Positions 7,037-37,297 of a DNA stretch of 64,000 nucleotides are shown in pieces. Position numbers and translations under genes: made by a program. Under the pieces are notes generated by a model, which did not search any database, was not told the origin of the DNA, and was given only the letters and a program-made list of their open reading frames with translations. The stretch is from a bacterium. Lineage in GTDB: Bacteria > Patescibacteriota > Minisyncoccia > UBA6257 > WO2-44-18. Location: assembly GCA_030698695.1 (NCBI GenBank), contig JAUYMR010000042.1:3174-67173 (forward strand), written 5' to 3'. Position 1 is the stretch's first letter; each line of letters starts with the position of its first letter.

Positions 7037-7648
7037 CTATTTAAACACCACTAATCTATAAGCCATAAAATTCCACAGCAACGAAGGCGCTACTGCTATT
7101 AATTTAGCAATATTTTCCCAAAGAGGCAAAGAAATACCAGTCAGCTGTATAAACGTCGTAAGTCCATAAACGATAGCTGTATTTATAACCAATCCCCCAA
7201 AACTAGCCAAAACAAACTTGATATATTCACCTCTGTTGATGGGGTCCACATTTCTAAAGGTCCAAAATTTATTAAAAATATAACTATTGGTAACAGCTAT
7301 AGAAAAAGAAATCACATTAAAAATAATAATCATCGGTCCTTGATAAACTTGAAATATTAAACTCAATAAGTTTAATATGCTGAGATCCAAAATGGCGTTA
7401 AATGAACCAATGGCGGCGAATTTTGTAAACTGCCACATAGCCGGCCAATTATGACCCGTAATTCCACCCACCCATAAAGCCGCGTTAGCAAAAATAAAAA
7501 AAGACATCACCAACAGGCCGACGTTTAAAAAGGTTAATGACCAAAACCCGGGATTAATATTTTCCAACACCGGAACCAACAAAATCCCAAAACCAATACC
7601 TATTAAGGAAACTAAAAAATAATCGTTTTTTGCGGCAACGGAGTTCAT
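7037..7648 (-). CDS. GtrA-family membrane protein
   Basis: Four TM helices and the GtrA-like 'NSYIFNKFWTFRN' motif. Confidence 0.6.
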   Translation of the reverse strand: MNSVAAKNDYFLVSLIGIGFGILLVPVLENINPGFWSLTFLNVGLLVMSFFIFANAALWVGGITGHNWPAMWQFTKFAAIGSFNAILDLSILNLLSLIFQVYQGPMIIIFNVISFSIAVTNSYIFNKFWTFRNVDPINRGEYIKFVLASFGGLVINTAIVYGLTTFIQLTGISLPLWENIAKLIAVAPSLLWNFMAYRLVVFK

Positions 7649-8310
7649 GTAAATCTTTTCAAAAAATTGATTATTTTTTCTGACAGCTCTTGATGAGTTT
7701 CCAATAAATCCGTACCGTGACCACCGCTTCTATAAATCATCACCTCTTTGACAATATTTACAGACACTAACTTGGCTAGCTGTTGATTCATAGTCGCGCA
7801 ATTACCACCAGAACGATTATCGTCTTCACTGGCTACCAACACAATCCCCTGCCCTGAAGCCAATTTAGGCACGAAGGCTGCCGCATTAACACCGTGATAA
7901 TTTAAGCCGGCAGATAATAAAACCGCCGCCCTGGCGCTATGATATTCAGCTAAATACCGCAGAGACAAATTGGCGCCGATAGAAGCGCCTACCAAAAAAA
8001 TATTTTTATCAACAGCGCCAAATCTCTTTAGCTGTTCTGTGGCGGCCACTAAATCCAAAAAACTTTTTTGATGATCGTCATCGCTAAAATCCCTATAGCC
8101 ATCCGGCCCCCCATCGGATTGGCCATGACCACGCAAATCTATAGCTATGGAAGCTAGATTATATTTTTGAGCTAGGGTAGCAAAGTTAACCCAAGACTCT
8201 TTAGTGGCCGGCATCATATGAACTAATAACAAATAGCCAACTGGTTTATCAACCGGATAATAATTATAGGCAATCCTAATATTATCTGTTGTTTGTAAAA
8301 AACTAGGCAT
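7645..8310 (-). CDS. alpha/beta-hydrolase (dienelactone hydrolase/esterase-like)
   Basis: A GxSxG nucleophile elbow (LVGASIGANL), HGQSDG, and the length of 221 aa fit this fold. Confidence 0.75.
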   Translation of the reverse strand: MPSFLQTTDNIRIAYNYYPVDKPVGYLLLVHMMPATKESWVNFATLAQKYNLASIAIDLRGHGQSDGGPDGYRDFSDDDHQKSFLDLVAATEQLKRFGAVDKNIFLVGASIGANLSLRYLAEYHSARAAVLLSAGLNYHGVNAAAFVPKLASGQGIVLVASEDDNRSGGNCATMNQQLAKLVSVNIVKEVMIYRSGGHGTDLLETHQELSEKIINFLKRFT

Positions 8311-9845: not shown

Positions 9846-9950
9846 TGTAACTAATTATAACACGTCCTTAATGTAGATTTACGGCAATAGACAAAAAATG
9901 GCGACTATCACTTCTCGCGGGAAAATTCATAATATCTTCAATGGTTATTC

Positions 9951-10025
9951 TGGTGCCAGGGGCGAGGATCGAACTCGCGACCTGACGCTTATGAAACGTC
10001 TGCTCTGCCACTGAGCTACCCTGGC
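9951..10025 (-). tRNA. tRNA-Met/Ile2 (anticodon CAT), CCA encoded
   Basis: rc = GCCAGGGTAGCTCAGTGGCAGAGCAGACGTTTCATAAGCGTCAGGTCGCGAGTTCGATCCTCGCCCCTGGCACCA. It folds as a cloverleaf with anticodon loop TTCATAA and a GTTCGAT T-loop. Confidence 0.85.
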
Positions 10026-10158
10026 ATATATCGTTGAAAATAATTCTATAAAACATCCACCCCATTATTGAACTACGCCGGCCTGTATTATTAGCTATAT
10101 CAGAGACAAGCAAAATAACAGCTAAAACTATTATAACCATTAACCATCAAAATACAAC

Positions 10159-10530
10159 TTATGATAAAAATTCTTTGACTCGTTTGCTGAGCTCTTCCAA
10201 TGAACAATTGGCCTTGACTATGTAGGCATCGACTTTAAGACCCATGCTTTCTAACGATTCCTCTTGGCCGGAAAGATTGGTAAAAACAAAAACCGGCGTA
10301 TTAACAAACGGAGACTGTGGGTCGCGTATTTTCTTCAACACATCAGTACCCGGCATTTCTGGTAAAATTATATCCAACAATATGAGGTCTGGCTTAAACT
10401 GACTAAGCTTATCTACTGCTTGCAAACCGTCAGTCGCGATATCAATTTCATAACCATCACTACGCAGGCTATCCGCGATAGCGTTAGCTAATATCTTTTC
10501 ATCTTCTACTACTAAAATTTTCTTGCCCAT
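10159..10530 (-). CDS. stand-alone response-regulator receiver (CheY-like, no output domain)
   Basis: MGKKILVVEDEKILA..D..PDLILLDIILPEM.G..VLKKIR.. carries the conserved D..D..K receiver residues in only 124 aa. Confidence 0.88.
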   Translation of the reverse strand: MGKKILVVEDEKILANAIADSLRSDGYEIDIATDGLQAVDKLSQFKPDLILLDIILPEMPGTDVLKKIRDPQSPFVNTPVFVFTNLSGQEESLESMGLKVDAYIVKANCSLEELSKRVKEFLS

Positions 10531-10605
10531 AAATTTATTCTTTTTAGCAAATATATTTTTAAAAAATGACCACTTGTTCATATTATAACACAAAATATTA
10601 ATTTG

Positions 10606-12750
10606 TTATTCTATTGGCAAAGCAAAATAAAAATCGGTTCCCTTGTCTCGACCTTCAGAATAAAACCATATATCTCCGCCATGCGCTCTAATAAAAGATC
10701 TGGCGATAAACATGCCCAACCCCAAACCATCTGGCAAAGTGGTTCTGGCTTTATCTCCTCGGAAAAACTGATCAAAAATGTGCCCCTTCTCATCTCCATC
10801 AATACCAATACCCTGATCACTCACGCTGATTACGACTCTGTTCTTATCTCCAACTTGATCCAAACTTGAAGTAATTTTAATCTCACCGTCCTTATGAGAA
10901 TAGGCTATGGCATTACTTATAATAACCTTTAAAATTCTTTTCAACTTGTCATAATCCGCCGGCACAATGACTGCCCTACTCTTAAAATCTCGGCTAATAA
11001 CCAAACGCTTCGGGAAAATAATGTCTTTAAAATCCTTAATAATTTCATTAACTATTTCCGATAAATCACAATCAGTCTTTTTGACCAACAATTTCCTGTC
11101 ATAAATATCTAAAGCCACCAAAATATCGTCCAATTGGCCGCCCAAAAAAACCGTACTCTGATAGGCGTTATCAACCATTTTCCGCCTATCTGCTTCCGAT
11201 AGCTTGTTTTGAGATAAAGATTCCAAAGACCATCTCAAAGCCGAAACTGGTGTGCGTAGTTGATGAGAAACTACGTTTATAAATTTTGATTTAGATTCGG
11301 ATAATTCTTTAACATCCGAATAAAGTTTGGCATTCTGGATCGCAAAACCAGCCTCGGCGGTAAATATATTCAATAAATTCATATCCTGATGAAAATAACC
11401 CTCACCGGATAATTTACTGCCAAGAACCAATATGGCAATCTCAGCGTCTTCGGCCATAATTGGGATCACTACGTCAATATCGTGAGACCTCATAACTTGT
11501 TTAATCGGCCCCTCTTCTAGGTAGTCAAAAGCTAATTCTATGGGGCGGGGGTCTCTGACCGTGGAGAGAGTTGAAAAATTGTTTGTTGATTGAAGGTGTA
11601 ACAAACTCTCCAATTCTTTGGCTGTGTCGTCCCCAAAACCAAATCCCATATCAAATTGGTTGATGATTTTATGATCATCAACCAACAACCAAGCTCCCTT
11701 GGCAATACCCATTTGTTCGGTTAAAAGCTTTAATGTTTCATTAGTCATTTTCTCCAAATCAACTGTACGACTAATGATGTTATTAAGCCGCGTCAGTAAT
11801 TCATCGGGGTCATAACGAACAGCATGAAATATTCTATTGGTTAGCTGTCTAAAAAAACTCTCTAAGGGACGGAAAGTAGTCAAAATCAATAAGGCCAATG
11901 CTATTGATATCGCCGATACGGTAATATCAAACTGCAATCCCAAAACCTCTTTGATAACAGCCAGTAAAACGAAGGCGTAAGCTACGGTTAAAACGGCCAT
12001 AGTCAATAAAAATGATGCCGCCCGTATTATAAAAATTCTAATATCAAAAAGACGATGCTTGATAATGGCGTAAGCGGTAAAAGCTACGAAGGGAAAGATG
12101 AAAATAGCGGCGAACGGCAAATAAGAAGGGTTATTAAAGACAACTGGCAAGAAAAAATTAGTCATCATAACGGCCAAAAACATGGCGGCAACTCCGGTGG
12201 TAACAAAAATAAATTTTCTACGATTATTTTTATCGGCCTTAAAAGTTTTAACCACTAAAATCACCAATCCAACAATGGCATAGCCAACAGTAGTCATGCC
12301 GAATACGGGCATCAACGGACCATTGACGGCTGACAATATAATGCCGTCGGGAGATAAAAACCCCACCTCTTTTAAAACCAATGGCGTCAACGTCAAAATA
12401 GAAATAATTGATGTCCAAATACTCAATATAATCACATAAATTTTTGATAATTTTATACGCTGATCGGGGAATGACAAAGCGAATAGAAAAAAAGAAAAGG
12501 TATATAAAGTGGCCGTAAACAGCGTCAAGCGCAGAACAGAAAAAGCATAGAAAACCGGCAATGGCCGGGAGCTAAGATAGTTAGCTATAGACCAAAAAGC
12601 TATAAAAAATGTAAATAGAAAGAACGTTATGTGGGTGGCGCTCCGACGCAATGATAAAAACACAATAAAACCCAAAATCACTGTCGCCATAATAGCCAAC
12701 CCGACAACAGAAAAATCCCAATTTATTAATAGAGGGTAGGTGGCTTGCAT
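10606..12750 (-). CDS. sensor histidine kinase with large (~10 TM) N-terminal membrane sensor domain
   Basis: Multi-TM N-terminal half, a GAF-like middle, the HisKA H-box 'VSHQLRTPVSALRWSLESL', and HATPase_c motifs (DQGIGI.., GLGLGM). Confidence 0.9.
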   Translation of the reverse strand: MQATYPLLINWDFSVVGLAIMATVILGFIVFLSLRRSATHITFFLFTFFIAFWSIANYLSSRPLPVFYAFSVLRLTLFTATLYTFSFFLFALSFPDQRIKLSKIYVIILSIWTSIISILTLTPLVLKEVGFLSPDGIILSAVNGPLMPVFGMTTVGYAIVGLVILVVKTFKADKNNRRKFIFVTTGVAAMFLAVMMTNFFLPVVFNNPSYLPFAAIFIFPFVAFTAYAIIKHRLFDIRIFIIRAASFLLTMAVLTVAYAFVLLAVIKEVLGLQFDITVSAISIALALLILTTFRPLESFFRQLTNRIFHAVRYDPDELLTRLNNIISRTVDLEKMTNETLKLLTEQMGIAKGAWLLVDDHKIINQFDMGFGFGDDTAKELESLLHLQSTNNFSTLSTVRDPRPIELAFDYLEEGPIKQVMRSHDIDVVIPIMAEDAEIAILVLGSKLSGEGYFHQDMNLLNIFTAEAGFAIQNAKLYSDVKELSESKSKFINVVSHQLRTPVSALRWSLESLSQNKLSEADRRKMVDNAYQSTVFLGGQLDDILVALDIYDRKLLVKKTDCDLSEIVNEIIKDFKDIIFPKRLVISRDFKSRAVIVPADYDKLKRILKVIISNAIAYSHKDGEIKITSSLDQVGDKNRVVISVSDQGIGIDGDEKGHIFDQFFRGDKARTTLPDGLGLGMFIARSFIRAHGGDIWFYSEGRDKGTDFYFALPIE

Positions 12751-12752
12751 AT

Positions 12753-13535
12753 TTAATTATAACTGGCCATTTTTTTAAAAAACTCCATTTTGTGTTCTAG
12801 AACACACCTTTCTGCCTCGGGATGCCAAAAACGATTCTTCATAAATCCTATAAAATCTTTACCGCCGAAAAAATTATGCTTAAGAGGCTTCAATCCGTTG
12901 TTAAAATCTTCACAATTCAGACACTTAGTCTCTACGTTTTTATATTTTTCAGAGATATCAATAGCATATTCTAATGTGCCTTCGGGCACTATTTCGTCAT
13001 CATCACAAATAAATAATAGGGTACGAATATTGGGTGGGATGTGTTCTAATTTAACAGCCGGCCGAACTACGCCCTGCGGATAGAAAATAAGGGGCGATAT
13101 GCCAAACAGGCCGACTATATGATTTTTAAGATTTCTCACGCTATGTTTTTTAATTTCTTCATCTGACGGCTCCTGAACCACTCTTCCAGCGAAAACGAAT
13201 CCCCCACTCATACCGCCAAGCACAATCTTGCTCTTTCCTCGACTCAAACACTCTTTAATGCCTTCTTCTATCTTATCAAAAACCCTACTCTCAGGAAAGG
13301 AATTGGCAAATTTAATCCTCCTCTGATAAGCCCCGGGCAACACCGTAAGTTTTAAGACTTTCCAAAAAGTCTTCTTCTCATAAGAATCGTCAAAAATATC
13401 AACACCGACAACAAACGCGCCCTCTTTAACAATGGGGTCAAAAACATCCATCATTGACTTGGTCAACCCTATGATGGGACTTATAAAAACAATTCCCAGA
13501 TTATTTAAATTATTATTGTTTTCCGATGCCAGCAT
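12753..13535 (-). CDS. alpha/beta-hydrolase-like protein (GxSxG 'GGMSGG')
   Basis: 260 aa with a putative nucleophile elbow LGGMSGGFVFAG. It overlaps the nitroreductase gene by 23 nt. Fold assignment is tentative. Confidence 0.4.
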   Translation of the reverse strand: MLASENNNNLNNLGIVFISPIIGLTKSMMDVFDPIVKEGAFVVGVDIFDDSYEKKTFWKVLKLTVLPGAYQRRIKFANSFPESRVFDKIEEGIKECLSRGKSKIVLGGMSGGFVFAGRVVQEPSDEEIKKHSVRNLKNHIVGLFGISPLIFYPQGVVRPAVKLEHIPPNIRTLLFICDDDEIVPEGTLEYAIDISEKYKNVETKCLNCEDFNNGLKPLKHNFFGGKDFIGFMKNRFWHPEAERCVLEHKMEFFKKMASYN

Positions 13536-14619
13536 GATGATTTTTATTATTTAATTTAGATATCAGTTTTTCTTCTACCGAAATACGCGAACTAAAAGAG
13601 CTGGCAGGTCCGGCCTCGCCAAGCCTAAACATCATAGCAATAGTTTCGTTACCCACATCAAATGTTCTTTTTATATCGTCATAAGCGGACTTCATCAAGC
13701 TTATATGATATGAAGATAATAAATTTTCGGTTTTTTCAGAGATTATGCGTTGAGCAAAAAACAATGTGGCGGTTACCGGCTGTAAAACCAAACCGAACGA
13801 AGTAGCTTTCAACCACACTCTTTGCATCAATCTACCGGCATTTACATAATCTCTGCTATTGTTGCCGCTCATTGTTATAATTCCCATCGCGGACCCACTG
13901 GCATAAAGCTTAGAATCTTCTTTAGCAATAAATCTCGGCAAACCCAAATGAATGGCTAACTTCATAAGCGGCCAATTCTTAGCTAGTCTAAACATTATTT
14001 TTTGAACAGGATTAAACTCCATCGCATTGATATACAATCCATGACGCAATCTTTTTTCTCTTGATTCATTCCAAACCACATCTTTGAACAATAGGCCATG
14101 AAGTTTTTTATTCTCTAAAATAACTATTTCGGCTAACGCCCCAGCTTTGCCGGCTATTTGTTTTTCTTTTTCGGATTCTAATAACTTAATCCCACCCGAT
14201 TCCGACTCTTGAGATGCCCTCAAAATACCGCTCCTTTGCTCCGCCGTTAACGGAATATTTTTATATGGCCTGCGATTAGTGTGGCGTTTTTTAATAAATT
14301 CAAAAAGAGCATCTTGTCGGACGCTGTCTGACTTTGAAAAAAACACCTCTGCCACTAAATTTTTATCAGTAGCTGACGGAAATAAATCAACTTTTGAAGA
14401 ATAGCCAAAATGCGAAGCGGCAATGACCATATTTTCAATCAATCCACCATGAGCAATATAAGAACCGCTTTGTTCAAAATTTAAATAAGGATTATCTTTA
14501 TCCGGTAAATTATATATCAAAAGACTATCTCCACCTATCTGAAATGCCCATGGCTGGCTATTATCTCCCGATGGAGCCCAAATGGCATAATCTAAAATGT
14601 CTTTAATATAACCCGACAT
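13513..14619 (-). CDS. nitroreductase-superfamily protein, two-lobed/tandem (368 aa; SagB/McbC-like size class)
   Basis: The N-terminal 'DYAIWAPSGDNSQPWAF' is the nitroreductase APS..N.QPW signature, and a second NTR-like half follows (..RRPYKNIPLTAEQ..). Confidence 0.7.
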   Translation of the reverse strand: MSGYIKDILDYAIWAPSGDNSQPWAFQIGGDSLLIYNLPDKDNPYLNFEQSGSYIAHGGLIENMVIAASHFGYSSKVDLFPSATDKNLVAEVFFSKSDSVRQDALFEFIKKRHTNRRPYKNIPLTAEQRSGILRASQESESGGIKLLESEKEKQIAGKAGALAEIVILENKKLHGLLFKDVVWNESREKRLRHGLYINAMEFNPVQKIMFRLAKNWPLMKLAIHLGLPRFIAKEDSKLYASGSAMGIITMSGNNSRDYVNAGRLMQRVWLKATSFGLVLQPVTATLFFAQRIISEKTENLLSSYHISLMKSAYDDIKRTFDVGNETIAMMFRLGEAGPASSFSSRISVEEKLISKLNNKNHHAGIGKQ

Positions 14620-14664
14620 ATCTCATTAAATTATACCACCTAGAACTCTAGGCATAAACTCAGT

Positions 14665-16197
14665 CTATTTTTTTACCCATTTTTGCTTACCGCCAGAATG
14701 GAAATATAGCGGATGTTCATAGGGCCAAAGAGTTAATCTAGGCAACATCCTAATTTTCGTTTGGTTATAACTCTCTCTGTATTCAGAATTTTCTTTCAGC
14801 AGATGGTTAATAATGATTGATCTAATCTTATCGCTAAGCTGTTTGGATTTTTTAATTTTCCGCCGTAATTCAATATTGATTTTAAAAACTTGATTTTGTC
14901 CTTTGTCTCTATCAACTACCATAGTGAATTTGCCCGTAATATTTTTTGATAAACTGCTAGCGCCCAAAGCCCTCCTTATTGTTTCCGGATATATATTAAA
15001 ACCGTTTAGAGTAACCACAAAATCACTTCTCTCATAAACAAAAACAAACGGCAATCTTTGAATTGTATCTTTGATGCCGGCCTTCTTTATTTCATTTTCC
15101 AAATTGATGCCCGCATTGCGGCAATGCTGAAGCATCTCATCAAAACCAATCACGCCGCCATTATCTTTCAAATCATAACGCGCCAAAGGCAATCCGCTAT
15201 AAGCCGAACATACTAAGCCGCCGTTTATTTCTTCAAAAAAGAACATTTCGGGAAAATATTGAGTTAATGTAGGTAATTTATAAATATCTCCAAAAATTGT
15301 TTTATAAAGCTTCTTGTTTTTGATAGCTAATCTTCTTATTAAAATTGACAATGGAGTCTCATAAGACATCGTTCCTAAATCTACCGTACCATAATGATTT
15401 AGCGTATCACGATAGATATTTTTAAGACCGGCTTGATGGGCTATATAATCTCTAAACTTTTCACTAAAACCTTCGGCTGAAAAGATAAACTTCATATTGT
15501 AATTTCGCCACTTTATTCCCTCGGCCAAGCCTTCATCCAATAAATCTTTAACGAATGGCGGATAACCGCCAATAATTATCTGATTGTAATAAGGAGCTAA
15601 TTTCCTAAATGCCTTTAAAATTTCTGACTTGTTCAATCCGGGATTTATAATGCTCAAAGCATAATCACCGCGACTAACCAAATGTTTAAGAGCTTGATAA
15701 GTAAACAAACCGCCGATCCACGCGCCCATAGCGAAACCGTTTATATATAAAGTTTTATGGCGATCAATTTTAAAATTACTATTTAGATATATTTCAGCAG
15801 TGGTTGCGTACTGCATATCTTGATCATCTTGGCGTGGGAAATAAAAAGGTTCTCCCGTAGATCCCGATGTGACTGAATACACCCAATGCTTTTCAGACAA
15901 TTCGCCACCCCAACATAAATCAACTAACGGGTATTTTTTAAGATATTCGCCCTTATCAAGGGTGGGCAACAATTTAAAATCAGCCATATTTTTAATATCG
16001 CCCATTTTAATGCCGTTGGACTTTAAAAATCTTTTATAGGCTGGCACCTCTTTAACCATTTCTCCGAAAAGACGCAAAGCCATCTGTTCTCCTCTCTTAA
16101 TCCAATAAACAGCCGGCTTGATTTTTAAATCTCTGATAATATTACGAATCTTCTTATTCATACATATCGTATCTTTATATGATAACAAAATACTCAC
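14665..16197 (-). CDS. PaaK-like adenylate-forming enzyme (phenylacetate-CoA ligase / coenzyme F390 synthetase family)
   Basis: The AMP-binding P-loop 'VTSGSTGEPFYFP' and 510-aa PaaK/CapK-like architecture. Confidence 0.75.
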   Translation of the reverse strand: MSILLSYKDTICMNKKIRNIIRDLKIKPAVYWIKRGEQMALRLFGEMVKEVPAYKRFLKSNGIKMGDIKNMADFKLLPTLDKGEYLKKYPLVDLCWGGELSEKHWVYSVTSGSTGEPFYFPRQDDQDMQYATTAEIYLNSNFKIDRHKTLYINGFAMGAWIGGLFTYQALKHLVSRGDYALSIINPGLNKSEILKAFRKLAPYYNQIIIGGYPPFVKDLLDEGLAEGIKWRNYNMKFIFSAEGFSEKFRDYIAHQAGLKNIYRDTLNHYGTVDLGTMSYETPLSILIRRLAIKNKKLYKTIFGDIYKLPTLTQYFPEMFFFEEINGGLVCSAYSGLPLARYDLKDNGGVIGFDEMLQHCRNAGINLENEIKKAGIKDTIQRLPFVFVYERSDFVVTLNGFNIYPETIRRALGASSLSKNITGKFTMVVDRDKGQNQVFKINIELRRKIKKSKQLSDKIRSIIINHLLKENSEYRESYNQTKIRMLPRLTLWPYEHPLYFHSGGKQKWVKK

Positions 16198-16265
16198 AGA
16201 AAAGCCCCAATTTTCATCGGGAACTAAAATTCAATTAAGTCTATATGGGTTATTTATATGCCCCG

Positions 16266-17315
16266 CTAATAAGCATCAACCTTGGCCCTGGCCATTGAGT
16301 CGGCAATAAAATCCGTAGATTTACGCATTTTAGAACTTTTAACAAAAATATCGCCGAGAGTCTTTTTTATCATTTTGACCCGGTTGATTATTAGCTTCTT
16401 ATTAATTTTATTTTCATATTCACTGACTACGCTTATTAATCCGCCAGCATTTACTACATAATCTGGCGCATATAAAATACCGGAGCGGTACAACAACTCC
16501 CCCGCCTTATCGTTAGCTAATTGATTGTTGGCGCCGCCTAAAACAATCTGACATCTCAATTCTTTAATAGTTTTGTTATTTAGTATGCCGCTCATGGCGC
16601 ATGGTGAATAAACGTCTACCCTTTGCTCGTGTATCTTAGAGGGTGAAATGGCAATTACTTTGGGGAATCTCTTTTCTATTGATTTTACTTTGTCTTTATC
16701 AATATCCGAAACAAATATTTTTTGATTGGAATTATCGCTATAAATCAATTTCAAAAATTCAGAACCAACCTTTCCAAGGCCGGCTATGGCAAAATTAGTT
16801 TCAGTCACATCTTTTTCGCCGAAAACCTCTCTTAAGGCCGCCTCCAAACCATAAAATAATCCCAAGCCAGTAAACTCAGTCGGATCTATTTTGGAACCAA
16901 CCATAAAAGGACTGGTGCGGCTCATCGTTTTAACGTCTGCCTGAGTCAAGCCGATGTCCGAACCGGTAATAAAAAGACCTTCTAATAGATTTACCCTTTC
17001 GGCATAAGCTTTCAATAAAGCGCTTGATTTGGGAACTGATCCAGATATAACAGCTTTAGCGCCTCCATATGGCAATCCCGCCATAGCCGCTTTATAAGAC
17101 ATTAATTTAGACAATCTCAAAACATCTTTAATAGCCTCCAATTGAGAACTATATGGCCATAAACGAGTGGCGCCAAAAGATGGAAATTTCTTGTTCTTCC
17201 GATGAATACCTATAAAACCCTTCAGGCCAATATTAGAATCATTCAAAAAGACCACTTTATGATGGTTGTCATATTCAACTAATTTTTCTACATCAAAACT
17301 GTGTCTAAAAGACAT
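16266..17315 (-). CDS. Glu/Leu/Phe/Val-type amino-acid dehydrogenase (Leu/Phe dehydrogenase-like)
   Basis: 'GIHRKN..GATRLWPY' and the catalytic-Lys motif 'AMAGLPYGGAKAVI' are followed by a C-terminal Rossmann fold (AIAGLGKVG). Confidence 0.85.
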   Translation of the reverse strand: MSFRHSFDVEKLVEYDNHHKVVFLNDSNIGLKGFIGIHRKNKKFPSFGATRLWPYSSQLEAIKDVLRLSKLMSYKAAMAGLPYGGAKAVISGSVPKSSALLKAYAERVNLLEGLFITGSDIGLTQADVKTMSRTSPFMVGSKIDPTEFTGLGLFYGLEAALREVFGEKDVTETNFAIAGLGKVGSEFLKLIYSDNSNQKIFVSDIDKDKVKSIEKRFPKVIAISPSKIHEQRVDVYSPCAMSGILNNKTIKELRCQIVLGGANNQLANDKAGELLYRSGILYAPDYVVNAGGLISVVSEYENKINKKLIINRVKMIKKTLGDIFVKSSKMRKSTDFIADSMARAKVDAY

Positions 17316-17322
17316 TGTTAGA

Positions 17323-18405
17323 TTAAAGATGCGGGTTGATGTGGATTCGCGCTACCAGCTGCTTGTCTTTGCTTAAAGCAATCTTCTTGAGGGCATAGAC
17401 CGCGTACACGCCCCCCAACATAGCAGCACTACCCAATTGAGGCCAAGAAACTAATTTTTTACTAATAACTTTTTTCACCGATTTTATCATTTCGGGATCC
17501 ACCAAATGTATTCCTCCGACAATATCTTTCATTATAATACTACCAACCATCTGCATTTTATTTATCTTAGGATCGCCGAATTCTCTAAGTTTTCTATTCC
17601 AATAGCTAAGCGGACGATGAAATATTTTCTTATAGCCCAAATCATAACGCTCAATATGCAAAACTATGCCATTACCGTTATCGGTGACCATTATAACTGG
17701 AACTTTATATTTTAAGGCTAATTTCCTAAGATTTATTTTCATAGGTAAATTATCAATCTCATCAACTAGACAATTTAATTTTTTTTGTGCTAATAGCGGC
17801 TCTAAATTATCTTCCGTTATACCTTTGGGCATAATCCTGACCTTAGCGAACGGATTATCCTCATAGATGCGGCGCGCGGCCAAAACGCATTTATTTAAGC
17901 CAATTTGATGAACTCCGCCAAAAATACGATTAAGATTGGTATTGTCCAAATTATCAAAATCAGCGATAGTTATTTCTCGCGCGATGCCGGCTTGCGTCGC
18001 GACAAAAGCGATATTACTACCAACGCTCATGCCGAATACAGCGACCTTGTAATTATATAACTTCTTTTGTTCCGCCGCGGTAATAAGATCTTGATTACGA
18101 TTTGTCTTTAATCTGAAATAGTCATCGGCGCGAACAGTTTTAACTAGATGATAATTCCACGGATAATACACCCAAACAAAAGATTTTTCTTTTTTAGTTT
18201 TGTATTTTTTAAAATCTTGCGTCTTATAAACAACTTCTTTATCTGCGCCGATGTATTTATGATTATCTATAAAAAACAACTCATTGATCTGGCGATTAAA
18301 AGAATCTACCACAATAACGGCATTATTGCCCCTCTTCAATCTATTAGCTTTGTCGTTGCTTAAAATTAGCGATCTATATTCTGAAGCTTCAAATTTCATA
18401 ATCAT
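17323..18405 (-). CDS. ThiF/MoeB/HesA-family E1-like adenylyltransferase with ~110-aa N-terminal extension
   Basis: Rossmann motif 'VAVFGMSVGSNIAFVATQAGI..ITIADFDNLDNTNLNRI'. There are no CxxC zinc motifs. An N-terminal ~110-aa domain is of unknown function. Confidence 0.75.
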   Translation of the reverse strand: MIMKFEASEYRSLILSNDKANRLKRGNNAVIVVDSFNRQINELFFIDNHKYIGADKEVVYKTQDFKKYKTKKEKSFVWVYYPWNYHLVKTVRADDYFRLKTNRNQDLITAAEQKKLYNYKVAVFGMSVGSNIAFVATQAGIAREITIADFDNLDNTNLNRIFGGVHQIGLNKCVLAARRIYEDNPFAKVRIMPKGITEDNLEPLLAQKKLNCLVDEIDNLPMKINLRKLALKYKVPVIMVTDNGNGIVLHIERYDLGYKKIFHRPLSYWNRKLREFGDPKINKMQMVGSIIMKDIVGGIHLVDPEMIKSVKKVISKKLVSWPQLGSAAMLGGVYAVYALKKIALSKDKQLVARIHINPHL

Positions 18406-18418
18406 ATCATTTAAAAAA

Positions 18419-19897
18419 TTAATCTTGTTTGGGGACGGGCAGACTCAGCCAGAATGTAACCCCATTGCCATCTTTTATCGGCGATTCAAACCATATTTTG
18501 CCTTGATTGGCCTCCATGGCCAGCTTAGCTATAAAAAGACCTAGGCCGCTACCGCGCGGTCTCAATTTTTGAGCCAATGGCCCACGATAGAATTTATTAA
18601 ATATTTTATCGTGCTCAATTTCGGGTATGCCCGGACCATCATTGCGTATGCCTATAAGATATTCATCGTTCCTCTTGCTAACACTAACGGCTACTGCCGA
18701 ACCTTCGGGAGAATAAGCAATCGCATTATCTAAAATATTCTCAAACGCCTCACTAAATAGCGCCCTATCTATAGACAATGTTTTTATGTCATCGGTTATA
18801 GATAACTCCACTCTAACATTACGAGATTTCGCGACTGGCTCAAATAAGGTCATCGTCTCCCTAATTAACTCACTAATATCAGTAGGCTGTCGCTTTGATG
18901 CTACGGAACCGGCTTCCAATCTAGAAATGCTCAACAAATCACCCACTAAAGAGATTAATCTTTCGTTTGATTCATATATGTTGGCCAGCTTTTCTTCTTG
19001 TTTATCAGAAAAATGATCGTCTTTGCGCAAAGACTCTATTAACCATTTCATAGACGATAAAGGTGTACGCAACTGATGCGAAGCAATAGAAATAAATTCT
19101 GTCTTAGATTTGTTCATCTCTTCTAACTCTCTAACGTTGCGAGTCAGCGCGTCTCCCATGCGGCTTACAGATTTATATAAACCACCTATTTCGCCATCGG
19201 CTAGCCGTTTGGGAATTATTTCCACCCTACCTTCGGCTATATTATTAGCCAAACTGGACACCTCTTTAATCGGTTCCAAAACACTTCTGTAAGCGTAGAC
19301 CATAAAGGCCACTCCTCCCAAAGTAACCAATAACCAAGCGGCAGAAAAAATAGGATAAAACAAAACCGCATTATTTTCAAAACTCTCTATCTGATCGGCA
19401 CTAACTTGGCGCAATATTACCAATAAAATATCGCTATTGACGCTAATATCATTTAGTAAATTTATTGATAATGGATTGGCGAGATAATCATTGACAGACT
19501 GCTTAAGCGCTAAGAATGATTCATATTCTAGCTGGGATAAAACTAATAAATTATCGCTAAGATATCGTTTATTGTCCGGCAAAAACAATCCATAATTATT
19601 CTCATAGTCCGCTATAGATGTATTCAGTCTGGCTTTCTGCTCCTTGATTAGATTTTCATATTCTGATTGAGTATATAAATTAGCGCTTCTCGCCAAAATG
19701 TCCAATCTTAAAGAAGTCTCCCGAATATCAGCCGCTGTCCTTCTTCCATTGGTAACAACATTTTCCTGTTGACTAATATAATTGACGGCATCGTTATAGA
19801 TATAAACGCTAAAAATGGCGCTTAAAAAAACCGGGATAGTGGCCAATATCACAAATCTCAAACCAAACTTTTCCGAAAGAGGCATTCTTGATTTCAT
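18419..19897 (-). CDS. sensor histidine kinase (2 TM, periplasmic sensor, HAMP-like linker, HisKA, HATPase_c)
   Basis: H-box 'IASHQLRTPLSSMKWLIESL' with N/G1/G2 boxes (NILDNAIAYSP, RNDGPGIP, GSGLGL). Confidence 0.9.
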   Translation of the reverse strand: MKSRMPLSEKFGLRFVILATIPVFLSAIFSVYIYNDAVNYISQQENVVTNGRRTAADIRETSLRLDILARSANLYTQSEYENLIKEQKARLNTSIADYENNYGLFLPDNKRYLSDNLLVLSQLEYESFLALKQSVNDYLANPLSINLLNDISVNSDILLVILRQVSADQIESFENNAVLFYPIFSAAWLLVTLGGVAFMVYAYRSVLEPIKEVSSLANNIAEGRVEIIPKRLADGEIGGLYKSVSRMGDALTRNVRELEEMNKSKTEFISIASHQLRTPLSSMKWLIESLRKDDHFSDKQEEKLANIYESNERLISLVGDLLSISRLEAGSVASKRQPTDISELIRETMTLFEPVAKSRNVRVELSITDDIKTLSIDRALFSEAFENILDNAIAYSPEGSAVAVSVSKRNDEYLIGIRNDGPGIPEIEHDKIFNKFYRGPLAQKLRPRGSGLGLFIAKLAMEANQGKIWFESPIKDGNGVTFWLSLPVPKQD

Positions 19898-20040: not shown

Positions 20041-20067
20041 TATACTCGCAATGATTTCCTAATTAGT

Positions 20068-20137
20068 TGCGGGGGTGGGAGTTGAACCCACTGCCTCCTG
20101 GTTATGAGCCAGACGAGCTACCGTTGCTCTACCCCGC
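20068..20137 (-). tRNA. tRNA-Met/Ile2 (anticodon CAT), no encoded CCA
   Basis: rc = GCGGGGTAGAGCAACGGTAGCTCGTCTGGCTCATAACCAGGAGGCAGTGGGTTCAACTCCCACCCCCGCA, with anticodon loop CTCATAA and T-arm GTGGG-TTCAACT-CCCAC. Confidence 0.8.
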
Positions 20138-20190
20138 GTGAATAGTGTATCACAATTGTTGCCAAATGCAAAAATTGGTAACCTTAAGCC

Positions 20191-21510
20191 ATGATTCCGC
20201 GGGCTCGCCATAATATGAATATAGCCATTCTTGGTTTCGCGCGAGAAGGAAGATCTCTATTAAAATTTCTAAAAAAAGCCCCTAAATTCAAGGGAGCTAA
20301 AATTACTATTTTAGATAAAAAGCTTAATAAAAATTATCTCCATCGTCTTGATAGATTTGACTTGCTCTTTCGCTCACCGGGCATCCCCTATAACTTGCCA
20401 GAAATTCAACAAGCTATTAAAGGGGGCCTTAAAATTTCCAGCGCCACTAAATTATTTTTTGATCTCTGTCCGGCTAAAGTTATCGGCGTTACCGGCACCA
20501 AGGGCAAGGGCACAACTTCCACGTTAATATATAAAATCCTTAAAGAGGCCGACAAAGACGTCTATCTAGCCGGCAATATCGGCAAACCGGCATTGAATAT
20601 CTTGCCCGAATTATCCAAAAAATCTTTGGTGATATTAGAACTATCTAGCTTTCAATTGCAGGATCTCAAAAAATCGCCAACTATTGCCATCGTATTAGAT
20701 ATCTTCCCCGATCATTTAGATTCTCATAAAAATATGCGAGAATATTTAGCCGCCAAAACTAATATTTGCGCCCACCAAACCAAAAAAGATGTTGTCTTTT
20801 ATTTCAAAAATAACCCACTATCTCAAAAAATGGCGCTCCATAGCCGCGGCCGTCACATTCCAATCTCCGCGCCCGACAACCTTTCAAAAAATAAAATAAT
20901 GGCCGCGACAGTAGCCGCCCATCTCAATTGTTCGCGCGCCACTATTGATAGAGTCATCAAAAATTTTCATGGCATGAAGCACCGCTTAGAACTTATTCGT
21001 AACATCAAAATCTCCAGAACCACTAAGCAACATTCTGGCATTCTTAATAATATGAGGGTGTTATTTTACGACGATTCGGCTAGTACTAATCCCCAAACCG
21101 CCGCCGTAGCCGTTCTATCTTTTGCGCCGAACAAATTAACCAATTCACCAACTAACCAACTAACCATTTTAATAGCCGGTGGCAAAGACAAAAATCTCAA
21201 TTATACTCCCCTAGCCAAGGCCATCAAAAAATCTGGTAACGTAAAACTAGTAATCCTTTTCGGCGAAAATAAAATTAAAATTAAAAAAACACTAGAGACT
21301 GGTGACCAGAAACCGAATATAAAACTAGCCAAAAATTTAAAATCCGCCGTTGATTTAGCTTATCAATCTGCCCGAAAACTAAGTAACCAACCAACTAATC
21401 AACTAATTAACATTATCCTCTCTTCCGGCGCCGCCAGTTTTGATATGTTCAAAGATTATGCCGATCGGGGCCAGCAATTCAAAAAGATTGTAAAAAAAAT
21501 AGCAAGATAG
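20191..21510 (+). CDS. murD: UDP-N-acetylmuramoyl-L-alanine--D-glutamate ligase
   Basis: Mur-ligase P-loop 'VIGVTGTKGKGTTSTLIYKIL', a MurD-like N-terminal Rossmann (NIAILGFAREGRS), and three-domain length. An alternative start lies at 20215. Confidence 0.8.
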   Translation: MIPRARHNMNIAILGFAREGRSLLKFLKKAPKFKGAKITILDKKLNKNYLHRLDRFDLLFRSPGIPYNLPEIQQAIKGGLKISSATKLFFDLCPAKVIGVTGTKGKGTTSTLIYKILKEADKDVYLAGNIGKPALNILPELSKKSLVILELSSFQLQDLKKSPTIAIVLDIFPDHLDSHKNMREYLAAKTNICAHQTKKDVVFYFKNNPLSQKMALHSRGRHIPISAPDNLSKNKIMAATVAAHLNCSRATIDRVIKNFHGMKHRLELIRNIKISRTTKQHSGILNNMRVLFYDDSASTNPQTAAVAVLSFAPNKLTNSPTNQLTILIAGGKDKNLNYTPLAKAIKKSGNVKLVILFGENKIKIKKTLETGDQKPNIKLAKNLKSAVDLAYQSARKLSNQPTNQLINIILSSGAASFDMFKDYADRGQQFKKIVKKIAR

Positions 21511-37267: not shown

Positions 37268-37297
37268 TCTAAGGCCTTGCGATGGCCTTAGATTATG
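37263..37297. terminator. 14-bp perfect stem-loop spanning both convergent stop codons
   Basis: cataatctaaggcc-ttgcgat-ggccttagattatg. There is no U-tract on either side. Confidence 0.45.

Follow-up and report, generated by a model that had tools for sequence, protein, structure and literature searches.

An eight-gene locus on one strand

The window, a stretch of 64,000 nucleotides of DNA from a bacterium of the Patescibacteria, contains eight co-directional genes, all of which (8/8) were found as open reading frames on the minus strand. In order of transcription, they are:

18419..19897, minus strand: HAMP-HisKA-HATPase sensor kinase HK1 (Pfam HAMP, HisKA, HATPase_c)
17323..18405, minus strand: putative ThiF-like ATP-dependent cyclodehydratase, homologue of the N-terminal half of the oxazolone synthetase TrzS/Rv1355c
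16266..17315, minus strand: NAD(P)-dependent Leu/Phe/Trp-type amino-acid dehydrogenase (AADH; amino acid <-> 2-oxo acid) of the ELFV family
14665..16161 (open reading frame 14665-16197), minus strand: PaaK-fold adenylate-forming ligase, here the founding member of a CPR-specific family
13513..14619, minus strand: Acg-type single-chain (tandem) nitroreductase-fold flavin-dependent oxidase (FDO), homologue of the C-terminal half of TrzS/Rv1355c
12753..13535, minus strand: dienelactone-hydrolase-like serine alpha/beta hydrolase of 260 aa, a lineage-specific accessory gene
10606..12750, minus strand: 7TM-GAF-HisKA-HATPase sensor histidine kinase (Pfam HisKA_7TM, GAF_2, HisKA, HATPase_c)
10159..10593, minus strand: stand-alone CheY-like receiver without an output domain (Pfam Response_reg 1.1e-20, residues 26-139)

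The intergenic gaps are 13, 7, 68 (104 with the ATG start of the ligase), 45, -23, 2 and 12 bp, with HK1 lying 13 bp ahead of the ThiF-like gene and the start of the 260-aa hydrolase overlapping the FDO stop by 23 bp. The ligase ATG at 16161 agrees with the 498-aa NCBI protein P0001, while the receiver, judged by its sequence, probably begins at the ATG at 10530 (MGKKILVVEDE...). An initial annotation had described eight co-directional genes with gaps of -23 to +69 bp, and all of its open reading frames and gaps were reproduced; the GGAK, SGSTGEP, APS..N.QPW and GxSxG motifs on which it relied are each present in the sequence. Its enzyme families are backed by Pfam and NCBIfam, except for the 260-aa protein, which has no Pfam hit and whose assignment as an alpha/beta-hydrolase is backed by invariant catalytic residues and a confident structure model.

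The locus is one copy of a conserved operon

Operons of the same kind recur throughout Patescibacteria (CPR), and the locus in the window is one of them. The earlier description of a single unit of dedicated chemistry in a small genome is borne out by conserved synteny across related loci and by the placement of the host in a small-genome lineage. Homologues of the genes are co-localised in at least 79 other genomes, and their recurrence in an order that differs from locus to locus, together with gene fusions, indicates clustering far beyond chance. Co-occurrence was counted in 45 well-flanked Patescibacteria loci gathered via the PaaK-like ligase, so the figures are conditional on the ligase: the ThiF-like gene is present in 45/45, the 7TM histidine kinase in 43/45 and the FDO in 36/45. 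The dehydrogenase is found in 31/45 and a class-I aminotransferase in 12/45, which gives 43/45 in total and no locus (0/45) with both. The 9/45 loci without an adjacent FDO imply that desaturation is not universal.

Fusions among the related loci join the ThiF-like protein to its partners as ThiF::FDO (at least eight loci), ligase::ThiF, ThiF::ligase, ThiF::hydrolase and AADH::ligase::ThiF (1242 aa), and others occur without it (AADH::ligase in L069, P0223 and P0277, AADH::FDO in L083, and FDO::hydrolase). The ligase::ThiF and AADH::ligase::ThiF fusions imply that these enzymes hand over directly to one another. With a median of 1 bp, and with 262/267 at most 100 bp long, the gaps that separate core genes leave no space for a precursor or carrier gene; inspection of gaps and open reading frames and the Pfam/NCBIfam searches agree with the initial annotation that YcaO, a carrier and a precursor peptide are absent. 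A MurD-like ligase is a divergent neighbour in the window, and one is also found in 12/79 loci and at L088-L090; at L090 it is embedded in a dcw-type block, suggesting that the order there was inherited.

The ThiF-like protein and the flavin oxidase match the two halves of Rv1355c/TrzS

The ThiF-like protein carries the Pfam ThiF domain (1.3e-19), and its residues 20-348 match positions 27-326 of the 722-position NCBIfam model NF005901 'Rv1355c family' with 218 bits (E 1.8e-64), compared with only 60 bits for the canonical ThiF model and 46 bits for TcdA, which is among its closest solved structures by sequence. The FDO (Pfam Nitroreductase and TM1586_NiRdase) matches positions 377-718 of the same model with its residues 5-352 at 177 bits; both scores lie below the curated family cut-off of 476 bits. 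The FDO also scores 195 bits on PRK14851 and 147.5 bits on the Acg family, and Acg (2ymv) is its sole PDB sequence match. A true Rhodococcus member of the Rv1355c family, which scores 839 bits on the family model, shares 32% identity with the ThiF-like protein over 295 aa (E 1e-40) and is colinear with the FDO along residues 389-714 (22% identity, E 9e-18).

The residues G125, S127, G129, D151, N157, N159, R160, K172, D216, K221 and R225 of the ThiF-like protein recur in 73 CPR homologues. The Rhodococcus protein has the Asp of its ThiF adenylation motif at the position of D216, which is probably the counterpart of the TrzS residue mutated as D217A (PMC12856293). The ThiF-like protein contains just two Cys and lacks a CxxC, and the six best-covering of its plasmid matches are all Actinomycetota Rv1355c-family or ThiF adenylyltransferases. 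In the FDO, the motifs APS..N.QPW and R112..NR are kept in 43 homologues.

The ThiF/nitroreductase pair itself is already described as an enzyme system: TrzS (= Rv1355c), TyzB/TyzC and OxzB belong to the ATP- and flavin-dependent N-acyl-oxazolone synthetases, and their cyclisation and desaturation of N-acyl amino acids has been proven experimentally (PMC10404671, PMC12856293, bioRxiv 10.1101/2020.06.11.147165). By homology to these enzymes, the ThiF-like protein and the FDO together would form a split oxazolone synthetase of the TrzS/OxzB type. These relatives displace the earlier analogies to the C/B pair of TOMM systems, to thioquinolobactin/PDTC thiocarboxylate pathways and to MccB. Many Patescibacteria are regarded as anaerobes. 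The use of O2 by the characterised FDOs (PMC10404671) contrasts with this and counts against an oxazolone reading.

Dehydrogenase, ligase and hydrolases

The AADH (Pfam ELFV_dehydrog_N and ELFV_dehydrog) retains the catalytic GGAK Lys, the SDIG Asp and GGANNQ, and has its fold and catalytic residues in common with LeuDH 3vpx and TrpDH 5b37, its top PDB matches at about 222 bits each, and with ScyB. The Trp dehydrogenase ScyB is its top NCBIfam match with 282 bits, under the cut-off of 600, and the AADH stays below every curated cut-off. As a precedent, ScyB of scytonemin biosynthesis is a dehydrogenase encoded in a secondary-metabolite cluster, where the aryl 2-oxo acid that it makes enters the pathway. 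Unlike these enzymes, the CPR AADH swaps with an aminotransferase in related clusters, the class-I aminotransferase substituting in 12 of the 14 well-flanked loci without an AADH; this mutually exclusive replacement strongly backs a step between amino acid and 2-oxo acid for the dehydrogenase, which the initial annotation had suggested as a supplier of 2-oxo acid.

All adenylation motifs of the PaaK-fold ligase are invariant. Its four closest structures comprise two CoA ligases and two CoA-independent amide/ester ligases, NatL2 of the nataxazole and ClxA of the closoxazole pathway (PDB 6siw, 9s3l; PMC12519233). NatL2 and ClxA, which are ATP-dependent, share its fold and differ from it in sequence (about 15-17% identity) and in using aminohydroxybenzoates as substrates; direct amide formation by the CPR enzyme would follow their example, while the two CoA ligases make a CoA-thioester product possible.

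The 260-aa hydrolase has only 16 homologues among 5.8 billion proteins, in which Ser110 (GGMSGG), Asp180 and His220 are invariant. Its AF2 model (pLDDT 91) finds the dienelactone hydrolases 3f67 and 1din as top Foldseek PDB matches (TM about 0.6), and in P0130 an apparent FDO C-terminus is fused to a hydrolase of this type. An unrelated MhpC/PcaD-like alpha/beta hydrolase takes the same position in 20/79 loci, with a ThiF or FDO fusion in five. The two unrelated types resemble dienelactone hydrolase and HsaD/BphD/3-oxoadipate enol-lactonase, respectively.

One kinase and one receiver travel with the enzymes

Which of the signalling genes belong to the operon? A homologue of the sensor part of the 7TM kinase (residues 1-480) adjoins the enzymes in 43/45 well-flanked loci, and the kinase is kept even in minimal ligase + ThiF clusters. 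In a reverse look-up, made from the kinase only and with four samples, all distant homologues (4/4; 23-29% identity) immediately follow a ThiF or FDO gene. Receivers with a single domain (120-181 aa) stand beside the cluster in 28/45 loci. The sensor region of HK1 (residues 1-255) has no homologue in any of 85 related loci, and HK1 is absent at L090, the locus of the closest relative. The two-kinase/one-receiver module of the initial annotation therefore reduces to one 7TM kinase and a stand-alone receiver, which are conserved, while HK1 and the 260-aa hydrolase are lineage-specific additions and not conserved parts of the cluster.

Discussion

We see about an even chance that this Patescibacteria-wide operon encodes an ATP-driven, oxazolone-type small-molecule pathway with its own membrane sensor. 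In such a pathway, the dehydrogenase, or in other lineages the class-I aminotransferase, would turn a hydrophobic or aromatic amino acid into its 2-oxo acid. The ligase would adenylate a carboxylic acid, most simply this 2-oxo acid, and we propose that, like the CoA-independent NatL2 and ClxA, it joins the acid to an amino group without an intermediate step. The result would be an N-acyl amino acid, and the ligase would thereby replace the N-acyltransferase (OxzA/TyzA/TrzA) with which known oxazolone clusters use acyl-CoA. As in the characterised homologues, the ThiF-like enzyme would adenylate the amino-acid carboxylate and close an oxazol-5(4H)-one ring, and the FDO would desaturate the C-alpha/C-beta bond. 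As an accessory step, a lactonase-like serine hydrolase may open or transfer the azlactone. The 7TM kinase and the receiver, co-inherited with the enzymes, may detect the product or one of its precursors, or they may control the pathway. Two ATP-consuming activations favour biosynthesis over catabolism. The product is probably a small heterocyclic molecule and possibly a signal.

The closest described system is TrzAS of Mycobacterium tuberculosis, M. smegmatis and Rhodococcus, in which the ThiF-FDO fusion TrzS makes N-acyl tryptazolones (PMC12856293). The window proteins are colinear with the two halves of TrzS and retain the ATP-binding Asp and the ThiF motifs, many CPR relatives are likewise ThiF::FDO fusions, and signalling genes adjoin both systems (c-di-GMP genes in M. 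tuberculosis, a GGDEF gene in Rhodococcus, a histidine kinase here). However, the window gene is split, with two genes between the halves and only 32% and 22% identity; the host belongs to Patescibacteria instead of Actinomycetota; in place of the N-acyltransferase, no TrzA-like member of which is found in the window, the 85 loci or the Pfam annotation of neighbours, stand the PaaK-fold ligase plus either a dehydrogenase or an aminotransferase; and a dedicated 7TM kinase is inherited along with the enzymes. A ThiF-like ATP-dependent cyclase is likewise paired with a nitroreductase-superfamily flavin oxidase acting on a small molecule in OxzAB of Pseudoalteromonas rubra and TyzACB of M. tuberculosis, whose fused (OxzB) and separate adjacent (TyzB/TyzC) arrangements both recur among CPR loci; yet these clusters are defined by the adjacent acyl-CoA-dependent OxzA/TyzA, take fatty acyl-CoA together with Tyr or Phe as substrates, and lack the dehydrogenase, ligase, hydrolase and kinase partners (bioRxiv 10.1101/2020.06.11.147165, PMC10404671). 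The layout of small-molecule biosynthetic genes beside a multi-pass membrane sensor kinase and a response regulator is reminiscent of CqsA/CqsS and LqsA/LqsS, in which an autoinducer synthase is paired with a polytopic membrane histidine kinase. The likeness is one of layout, with no sequence kinship expected, and by this analogy the CPR kinase might sense a ligand.

Could these enzymes form another kind of ring? The ligase might join two amino-acid-derived units, as a dipeptide-like amide or as C-C- or ester-linked 2-oxo acids, with the ThiF-like protein closing a diketopiperazine or a butenolide/furanone lactone, the oxidase desaturating as AlbA does and the lactonase-like hydrolase acting on the ring. 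Atromentin and terrequinone clusters, which pair an aminotransferase with an aryl-pyruvate-adenylating enzyme, set a precedent, the accessory hydrolases resemble enzymes of butenolides, and the nine loci mentioned above lack an adjacent FDO. Varied adenylation-driven cyclisations are known in the ThiF family, and the diketopiperazine desaturase AlbA belongs to the nitroreductase family (bioRxiv 10.1101/2020.06.11.147165). Still, the nearest characterised relatives of both proteins are oxazolone synthetases and not AlbA or lactone-forming enzymes, making another ring unlikely in our view. We also know of no PaaK-fold enzyme that activates alpha-amino acids. Slightly less likely still is the same pathway with a plain acyl-CoA ligase supplying an acyltransferase whose gene lies elsewhere, with kinase and receiver regulating the operon on an outside cue (host contact, nutrients) and an effector, lipid or antimicrobial as the product in place of a self-sensed signal. 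Two-component systems commonly regulate adjacent operons, N-acyl-tyrosine derivatives with antimicrobial action exist, and oxazolones lack an established role even in Mycobacterium; against this stand an acyltransferase in the cluster at 0/85 loci, the hand-over implied by the fusions, the receiver without a DNA-binding domain and the retention of the kinase in minimal clusters.

A modified macromolecule, by TcdA-like cyclisation on tRNA or by tailoring of the peptidoglycan stem peptide, is suggested by the place of TcdA among the solved structures closest in sequence to the ThiF-like protein and by the recurrent MurD-like neighbour. We consider it quite improbable, as the ThiF-like protein prefers the TrzS family to TcdA by 218 to 46 bits, MurD adjacency is confined to a minority of loci and, at L090, points to inherited order, and neither an AADH or aminotransferase nor a flavin oxidase would have an obvious role there. 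Hardly credible are a TOMM-like azoline/azole system, a ThiS/MoaD-type thiocarboxylate pathway or MccB-type peptide adenylation: the likeness of E1-like and nitroreductase-fold proteins lies at the level of domains, and MccB is a weak PDB match to the ThiF-like protein (E about 6e-4), whereas matches to YcaO and SagB-type models are absent in Pfam and NCBIfam, the tight core gaps hold no carrier or precursor, the ThiF-like protein lacks the CxxC zinc motif and falls far under the ThiF/MoeB cut-offs, and the nitroreductase is of the Acg/FDO type.

The full combination of ligase, dehydrogenase or aminotransferase and kinase, which the initial annotation could not place in a described pathway, does appear undescribed in the literature searched. 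If the operon does make a small heterocycle, this pathway would stand in ultra-small bacteria thought to be nearly devoid of such chemistry.

Organization of the locus

The locus consists of eight consecutive ORFs on the minus strand, as the initial annotation had described, and the family assignments and motifs given there were upheld by Pfam and NCBIfam. From first to last in transcription order, the genes are:

18419-19897 (-): HK1, HAMP-HisKA-HATPase kinase, 492 aa (ORF call and Pfam/NCBIfam)
17323-18405 (-): ThiF-like protein, 360 aa (Pfam/NCBIfam)
16266-17315 (-): ELFV amino-acid dehydrogenase (AADH), 349 aa (Pfam/NCBIfam)
14665-16197 (-): PaaK-like protein, here the ligase (Pfam/NCBIfam); counted from an ATG at 16161, it agrees with the 498-aa NCBI protein P0001
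13513-14619 (-): tandem nitroreductase-fold flavin oxidase (FDO), 368 aa
12753-13535 (-): hydrolase, 260 aa
10606-12750 (-): HK2, HisKA_7TM-GAF-HisKA-HATPase kinase, 714 aa
10159-10593 (-): stand-alone receiver

In the same order, the intergenic gaps measure 13, 7, 68 (or 104 between dehydrogenase and ligase), 45, -23, 2 and 12 bp. Promoter and terminator scans of the locus were uninformative, performing no better than on shuffled sequence; this holds for the scan that returned weak terminator-like hairpins in the dehydrogenase-ligase gap (16205-16222, -) and the ligase-FDO gap (14637-14654, -). The flanking genes are of the housekeeping type (triose-phosphate isomerase, SIMPL, GtrA, PPIase, a MurD-like ligase, GatA and LigA). 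We find no evidence for a genomic island: the two tRNA(CAT) genes that exactly bracket the locus (9951-10025 and 20066-20138, both -) are not direct repeats but different tRNAs of about 76% column identity, one of them initiator-like in appearance, and the locus is only slightly more AT-rich than its flanks. A 90-aa ORF at 9868-10140 overlaps the first of these tRNA genes and is spurious.

Elsewhere in the window, the only rise in GC content (to about 0.445) and the only sign change in GC skew (38-42 kb) coincide with a 2049-aa ORF (37293-43442, -) featuring LVIVD repeats and a beta-propeller, which is possibly one of the giant surface proteins characteristic of the Patescibacteria (CPR) and is followed by a P-type cation ATPase (43549-46152). 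A T2SSE/MshEN-type, PilB-like secretion or pilus ATPase (32100-33818, -) is consistent with type IV pilus machinery, which is common in CPR.

A split relative of the oxazolone synthetases

What the initial annotation missed is that the ThiF protein and the nitroreductase probably form a module of a known kind, that of the oxazolone synthetases. Residues 20-348 of the ThiF protein score 218 bits (E 1.8e-64) over positions 27-326 of the 722-position NCBIfam 'Rv1355c family' model, below a cut-off of 476 bits set for the full-length fusion; every ThiF, MoeB or TcdA model stays at or below 61 bits. The nitroreductase (residues 5-352) reaches 177 bits against positions 377-718 of this model, in addition to matching PRK14851 (195 bits) and the Acg family (147.5 bits). 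Because the two proteins match successive parts of one model, their genes appear to encode the two halves of a known fusion protein. When the window ThiF was searched against plasmids by tblastn, the six best-covering matches were all actinomycete proteins annotated 'Rv1355c family' or 'ThiF family adenylyltransferase', annotations carried by 13 of the 15 ThiF matches listed. One Rhodococcus qingshengii plasmid protein, which reaches 839 bits against the Rv1355c-family model, is colinear with the window ThiF (32% identity over 295 aa, E 1e-40) and, in its FDO half, with the window nitroreductase (22% over 342 aa, E 9e-18). The best-scoring plasmid relatives also include a stand-alone Streptomyces ThiF (L092, NZ_CP109451.1, 4704-6502), with a MerR regulator before it, a GNAT-family gene after it and no FDO, another variant of the ThiF-plus-acyltransferase theme.

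The ThiF/FDO module itself is already known from work of 2020 to 2025. In Pseudoalteromonas rubra, the oxazolone synthetase OxzB combines a ThiF and a nitroreductase domain in one protein (bioRxiv 10.1101/2020.06.11.147165), and TrzS (Rv1355c) cyclises N-acyl-tryptophan with ATP and then desaturates it with O2 (PMC12856293). Oxazolones do not survive contact with acids or alcohols (PMC12856293). The substitution D217A abolishes cyclisation by TrzS (PMC12856293); D216 of the window ThiF, which aligns with the adenylation-motif Asp of the Rhodococcus protein, is probably its counterpart. It is conserved in 73 CPR homologues, together with G125, S127, G129, D151, N157, N159, R160, K172, K221 and R225. 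As expected of an oxazolone synthetase, ThiF is accompanied by an FDO, encoded in the same operon here and fused to it (ThiF::FDO) in at least eight related loci. The solved structures nearest to the window ThiF in sequence are the ThiF-type protein 9egc and the cyclodehydratase TcdA, while for the nitroreductase the only relative with a solved structure is Acg (2ymv), which also served the TrzS authors as reference structure (PMC12856293).

A single pathway across the CPR

No exact copy of the window ThiF protein was found in public assemblies, and the PaaK-like ligase was used as the probe for related loci. Its database relatives number more than 5000; of these, the best 120 are 53-62% identical and, where taxonomically named, nearly all from Patescibacteria. 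A HMMER scan of 1.84 billion cluster representatives (clusters at 50% identity) returned 562 clusters at E<=1e-30, and a scan of one genome per GTDB species returned 233 relatives, with the best 80 loci all in CPR MAGs. Some TPA MAG loci (L006, L008, L015, L016, L020, L030 and others) are titled 'uncultured Gammaproteobacteria bacterium' and carry the CPR-type cluster; among these records, L020 (OZ246401.1) is entered as a 'chromosome' of 0.94 Mb. The organisms are probably mislabelled Patescibacteria.

ORFs were called in the relatives' loci and searched with the window proteins, and occurrences were counted in the 45 loci that were sufficiently flanked on both sides.

Occurrence of cluster genes in the 45 well-flanked loci
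ThiF: 45/45
Homologue of the HK2 7TM sensor region: 43/45
FDO: 36/45
Amino-acid dehydrogenase: 31/45
Single-domain receiver: 28/45
MhpC/PcaD-like alpha/beta hydrolase: 13/45

Gene order varies by lineage. The window order ThiF-AADH-ligase-FDO-kinase is also found in Paceibacteria-type MAGs; in L090, the nearest relative on a long contig, the ligase gene is found on the opposite strand. A 3.7-kb insertion in L024 (11492-15250) parts the ligase from the FDO. Besides ThiF::FDO, we found fusions of ligase::ThiF (database proteins P0061 and P0199), the reverse ThiF::ligase (P0304), AADH::ligase (L069, P0223), AADH::FDO (L083), ThiF::hydrolase and FDO::hydrolase, as well as a triple fusion AADH::ligase::ThiF of 1242 aa (P0277). 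Gaps between consecutive core genes have a median of 1 bp, with 262 of 267 at or below 100 bp (79 loci). This combination of co-occurrence, fusion and short gaps shows a single pathway, and the gene-neighbourhood comparison suggested by the initial annotation thus bears out that its enzymes belong together. The pathway is kept across Saccharimonadia, Paceibacteria, Doudna-, Roizman-, Magasanik-, Gottesman-, Woesebacteria and other CPR lineages.

A MurD-like Mur ligase (20191-21510, +) is a recurrent divergent neighbour, present also in L088, L089 and L090 and in 12 of 79 GTDB loci; it often adjoins the receiver gene. It is probably not a functional partner, on account of this low count and its position in L090, within a dcw-type block (MraY, MurD, FtsW, MurG); the adjacency is probably inherited gene order, a link to the cell wall being less likely.

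Proposed supply of the substrate

The window dehydrogenase falls into the class of ELFV hydrophobic amino-acid dehydrogenases: both ELFV domains score above the Pfam cut-off, leucine and tryptophan dehydrogenases are equally near (about 222 bits each), and GGAK, SDIG and GGANNQ are kept in alignments to LeuDH and TrpDH. Twelve of the 14 well-flanked loci without a dehydrogenase contain a class-I aminotransferase, encoded divergently 1.2-2.4 kb upstream of the ligase. This gene, first found in L089 and matching broad Asp/aromatic-type aminotransferases best in NCBIfam, is present in 21 loci overall and never alongside the dehydrogenase, so that 43 of the 45 loci (31 plus 12) encode exactly one enzyme interconverting amino acid and 2-oxo acid. 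The reaction would run from the amino acid to the 2-oxo acid, since these organisms need amino acids anyway and the 2-oxo acid is the special intermediate. The N-to-C order of the triple fusion, AADH-ligase-ThiF, fits a sequence of amino acid to 2-oxo acid, activation and coupling, and cyclisation.

But what provides the N-acyl amino acid? Known oxazolone clusters are defined by an adjoining acyl-CoA N-acyltransferase (bioRxiv 10.1101/2020.06.11.147165, PMC10404671), whereas no acyltransferase domain was found in the eight proteins of the locus or in the Pfam-annotated neighbours of related loci. Likewise, the presumed TrzA homologue beside the Rhodococcus Rv1355c gene gave no match at E<=10 in the 64-kb window and 85 loci. 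[quoted passage not shown] The ligase is only marginally similar to the PaaK equivalog (35.9 bits, not reaching the cut-off of 646; PDB E 2.7e-8), and its AF2 model is confident (pLDDT 86.7) and has a clear PaaK fold, comparing best with BT_0428 (PaaK; 27.6), followed by NatL2 (6siw; 24.7), 2-hydroxyisobutyryl-CoA ligase (6hdw; 24.6), ClxA (9s3l; 23.7), EhpF (18.6) and GH3.15 (15.9). It possesses the P-loop, ribose-binding Asp, hinge and C-terminal catalytic Lys of the ANL superfamily, and T98-S-G-S-T-G-E-P105, Y257-G-T-V-D-L-G-T264, D333, E377-R378-x-D380 and K492 vary little or not at all among 22 homologues. NatL2 and ClxA join the acyl-adenylate straight to an O or N nucleophile and do not use CoA (PMC12519233). 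The protein represents a new PaaK-fold family, for which we infer an amide-forming role; less probably, it is a plain CoA ligase and the kinase acts only as a regulator.

The 260-aa hydrolase belongs to a tiny family of 16 sequences with an invariant Ser110-Asp180-His220 triad, and its model (pLDDT 91) is nearest to dienelactone hydrolases. Triad and fold rule it out as the missing N-acyltransferase. In 20 of 79 other loci, the same slot is taken by a different alpha/beta hydrolase, sometimes fused to ThiF or FDO, which matches HsaD, BphD and 3-oxoadipate enol-lactonase best, though never above cut-off. That this position is filled by either of two unrelated lactonase-like hydrolases suggests that the azlactone, the proposed product ring, may optionally be opened or undergo acyl transfer. 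The window encodes a second alpha/beta hydrolase (7645-8310, -; 221 aa, Abhydrolase_1/Hydrolase_4), surrounded by housekeeping genes about 2 kb downstream of the receiver; no homologue of it was found close to the clusters of other genomes.

Signalling genes

Among the non-enzymatic genes, the 7TM kinase accompanies the pathway most faithfully. When the look-up was reversed to start from remote homologues of its sensor domain (23-29% identity), all four of those sampled lay directly after ThiF or FDO. Every receiver is a single-domain protein of 120-181 aa. HK1 is missing from the nearest relative (L090), and searches of the related loci recovered no homologue of its sensor region; it is a local, lineage-specific neighbour. 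The proposed wiring to two kinases is therefore retained for the 7TM kinase (43/45) and, in 28 of 45 loci, the receiver, but not for HK1. On the 1-Mb CPR contig L087 (8698-15080), the cluster kinase directly precedes the genes of a SpvB/TcdB/RHS-type toxin of 1988 aa and a Barstar-like immunity protein.

The layout resembles that of CqsA/CqsS-type systems, in which a synthase adjoins a polytopic membrane kinase. The Rhodococcus Rv1355c-family locus has an adjoining GGDEF gene, and the TrzAS authors noted that oxazolones resemble signalling molecules and that trzAS adjoins c-di-GMP genes (PMC12856293).

Alternative chemistries

The analogies drawn by the initial annotation, to TOMM, thiocarboxylate and MccB-type systems, fail on the features that define those systems. 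A small-ORF search of the kind it suggested, listing all ORFs of at least 20 aa between 10100 and 20250, showed none for a precursor or carrier peptide in the coding-strand intergenic space, and the core-gene gaps across 79 loci are too short for one; both the RiPP and the ThiS-type readings were rejected. For a TOMM or linear azol(in)e, a match to a YcaO or SagB model is missing as well, the small intergenic ORF is absent and the median gap is 1 bp. Activation of a ThiS/MoaD-type carrier, as by ThiF/MoeB or in the PDTC and thioquinolobactin pathways, is rejected since there is no carrier ORF and the window ThiF contains two isolated cysteines and no CxxC; the ThiF and MoeB models give 35-61 bits against cut-offs of 152-450. 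Anti-phage defence (CBASS Cap2, 6A-MBL and others) was likewise discarded, as PADLOC reports only generic E1 domain matches of at most 37 bits, and none for ligase, dehydrogenase, nitroreductase or hydrolase.

The oxazolone itself has a more serious competitor. The same enzymes could possibly make a different ring, such as a diketopiperazine or a butenolide: ThiF-type cyclisations are diverse, AlbA-type desaturation exists in the nitroreductase superfamily (bioRxiv 10.1101/2020.06.11.147165), and an adjacent FDO is absent from 9 of the 45 loci. That the locus enzymes modify a macromolecule is unlikely.

The product, the sensing role and the enzymology beyond homology are predictions from sequence. 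Taken together, we tentatively put forward a phylum-wide, self-contained chemical signalling module of Patescibacteria, a proposal that in this complete form is rather doubtful: an amino-acid-derived 2-oxoacyl (or other acyl) oxazolone-type heterocycle would be made without CoA by the dehydrogenase or aminotransferase, a PaaK-fold amide ligase and a split oxazolone synthetase, detected by the co-inherited 7TM kinase and relayed through the stand-alone receiver.

Implications

In the searchable literature, we found no paper linking Patescibacteria/CPR with ThiF plus nitroreductase, oxazolones or this ligase, and no description of the CPR-wide architecture. This architecture lacks the acyltransferase and comprises a new PaaK-fold ligase family, an obligatory dehydrogenase-or-aminotransferase step, optional lactonase-like hydrolases, and a dedicated 7TM kinase with its receiver. 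The oxazolone-synthetase field, which is very young, would thereby be extended to a new phylum and to an acyltransferase-free, probably CoA-free logic, and the ligase family, with its 562 clusters, may serve as a source of amide-bond biocatalysts. Even if the product turns out to be mundane, the annotations 'phenylacetate-CoA ligase', 'ThiF/MoeB' and 'nitroreductase' are corrected for thousands of CPR genes.

Patescibacteria make up a large part of bacterial diversity and live attached to hosts, with tiny genomes and almost no biosynthesis. That a multi-enzyme pathway costing two ATP is kept across many of their classes, nearly always with one 7TM kinase, implies an important function. For the regulation and communication of CPR during host-attached life, the cluster offers a specific candidate for small-molecule signalling or interaction with the host that can be put to the test; it also bears on the physiological role of biological oxazolones. 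Should the signalling module prove real, these ultra-small episymbionts would have their first proposed autoinducer-like (or symbiont-host) small-molecule system, and biological oxazolones their first physiological role.
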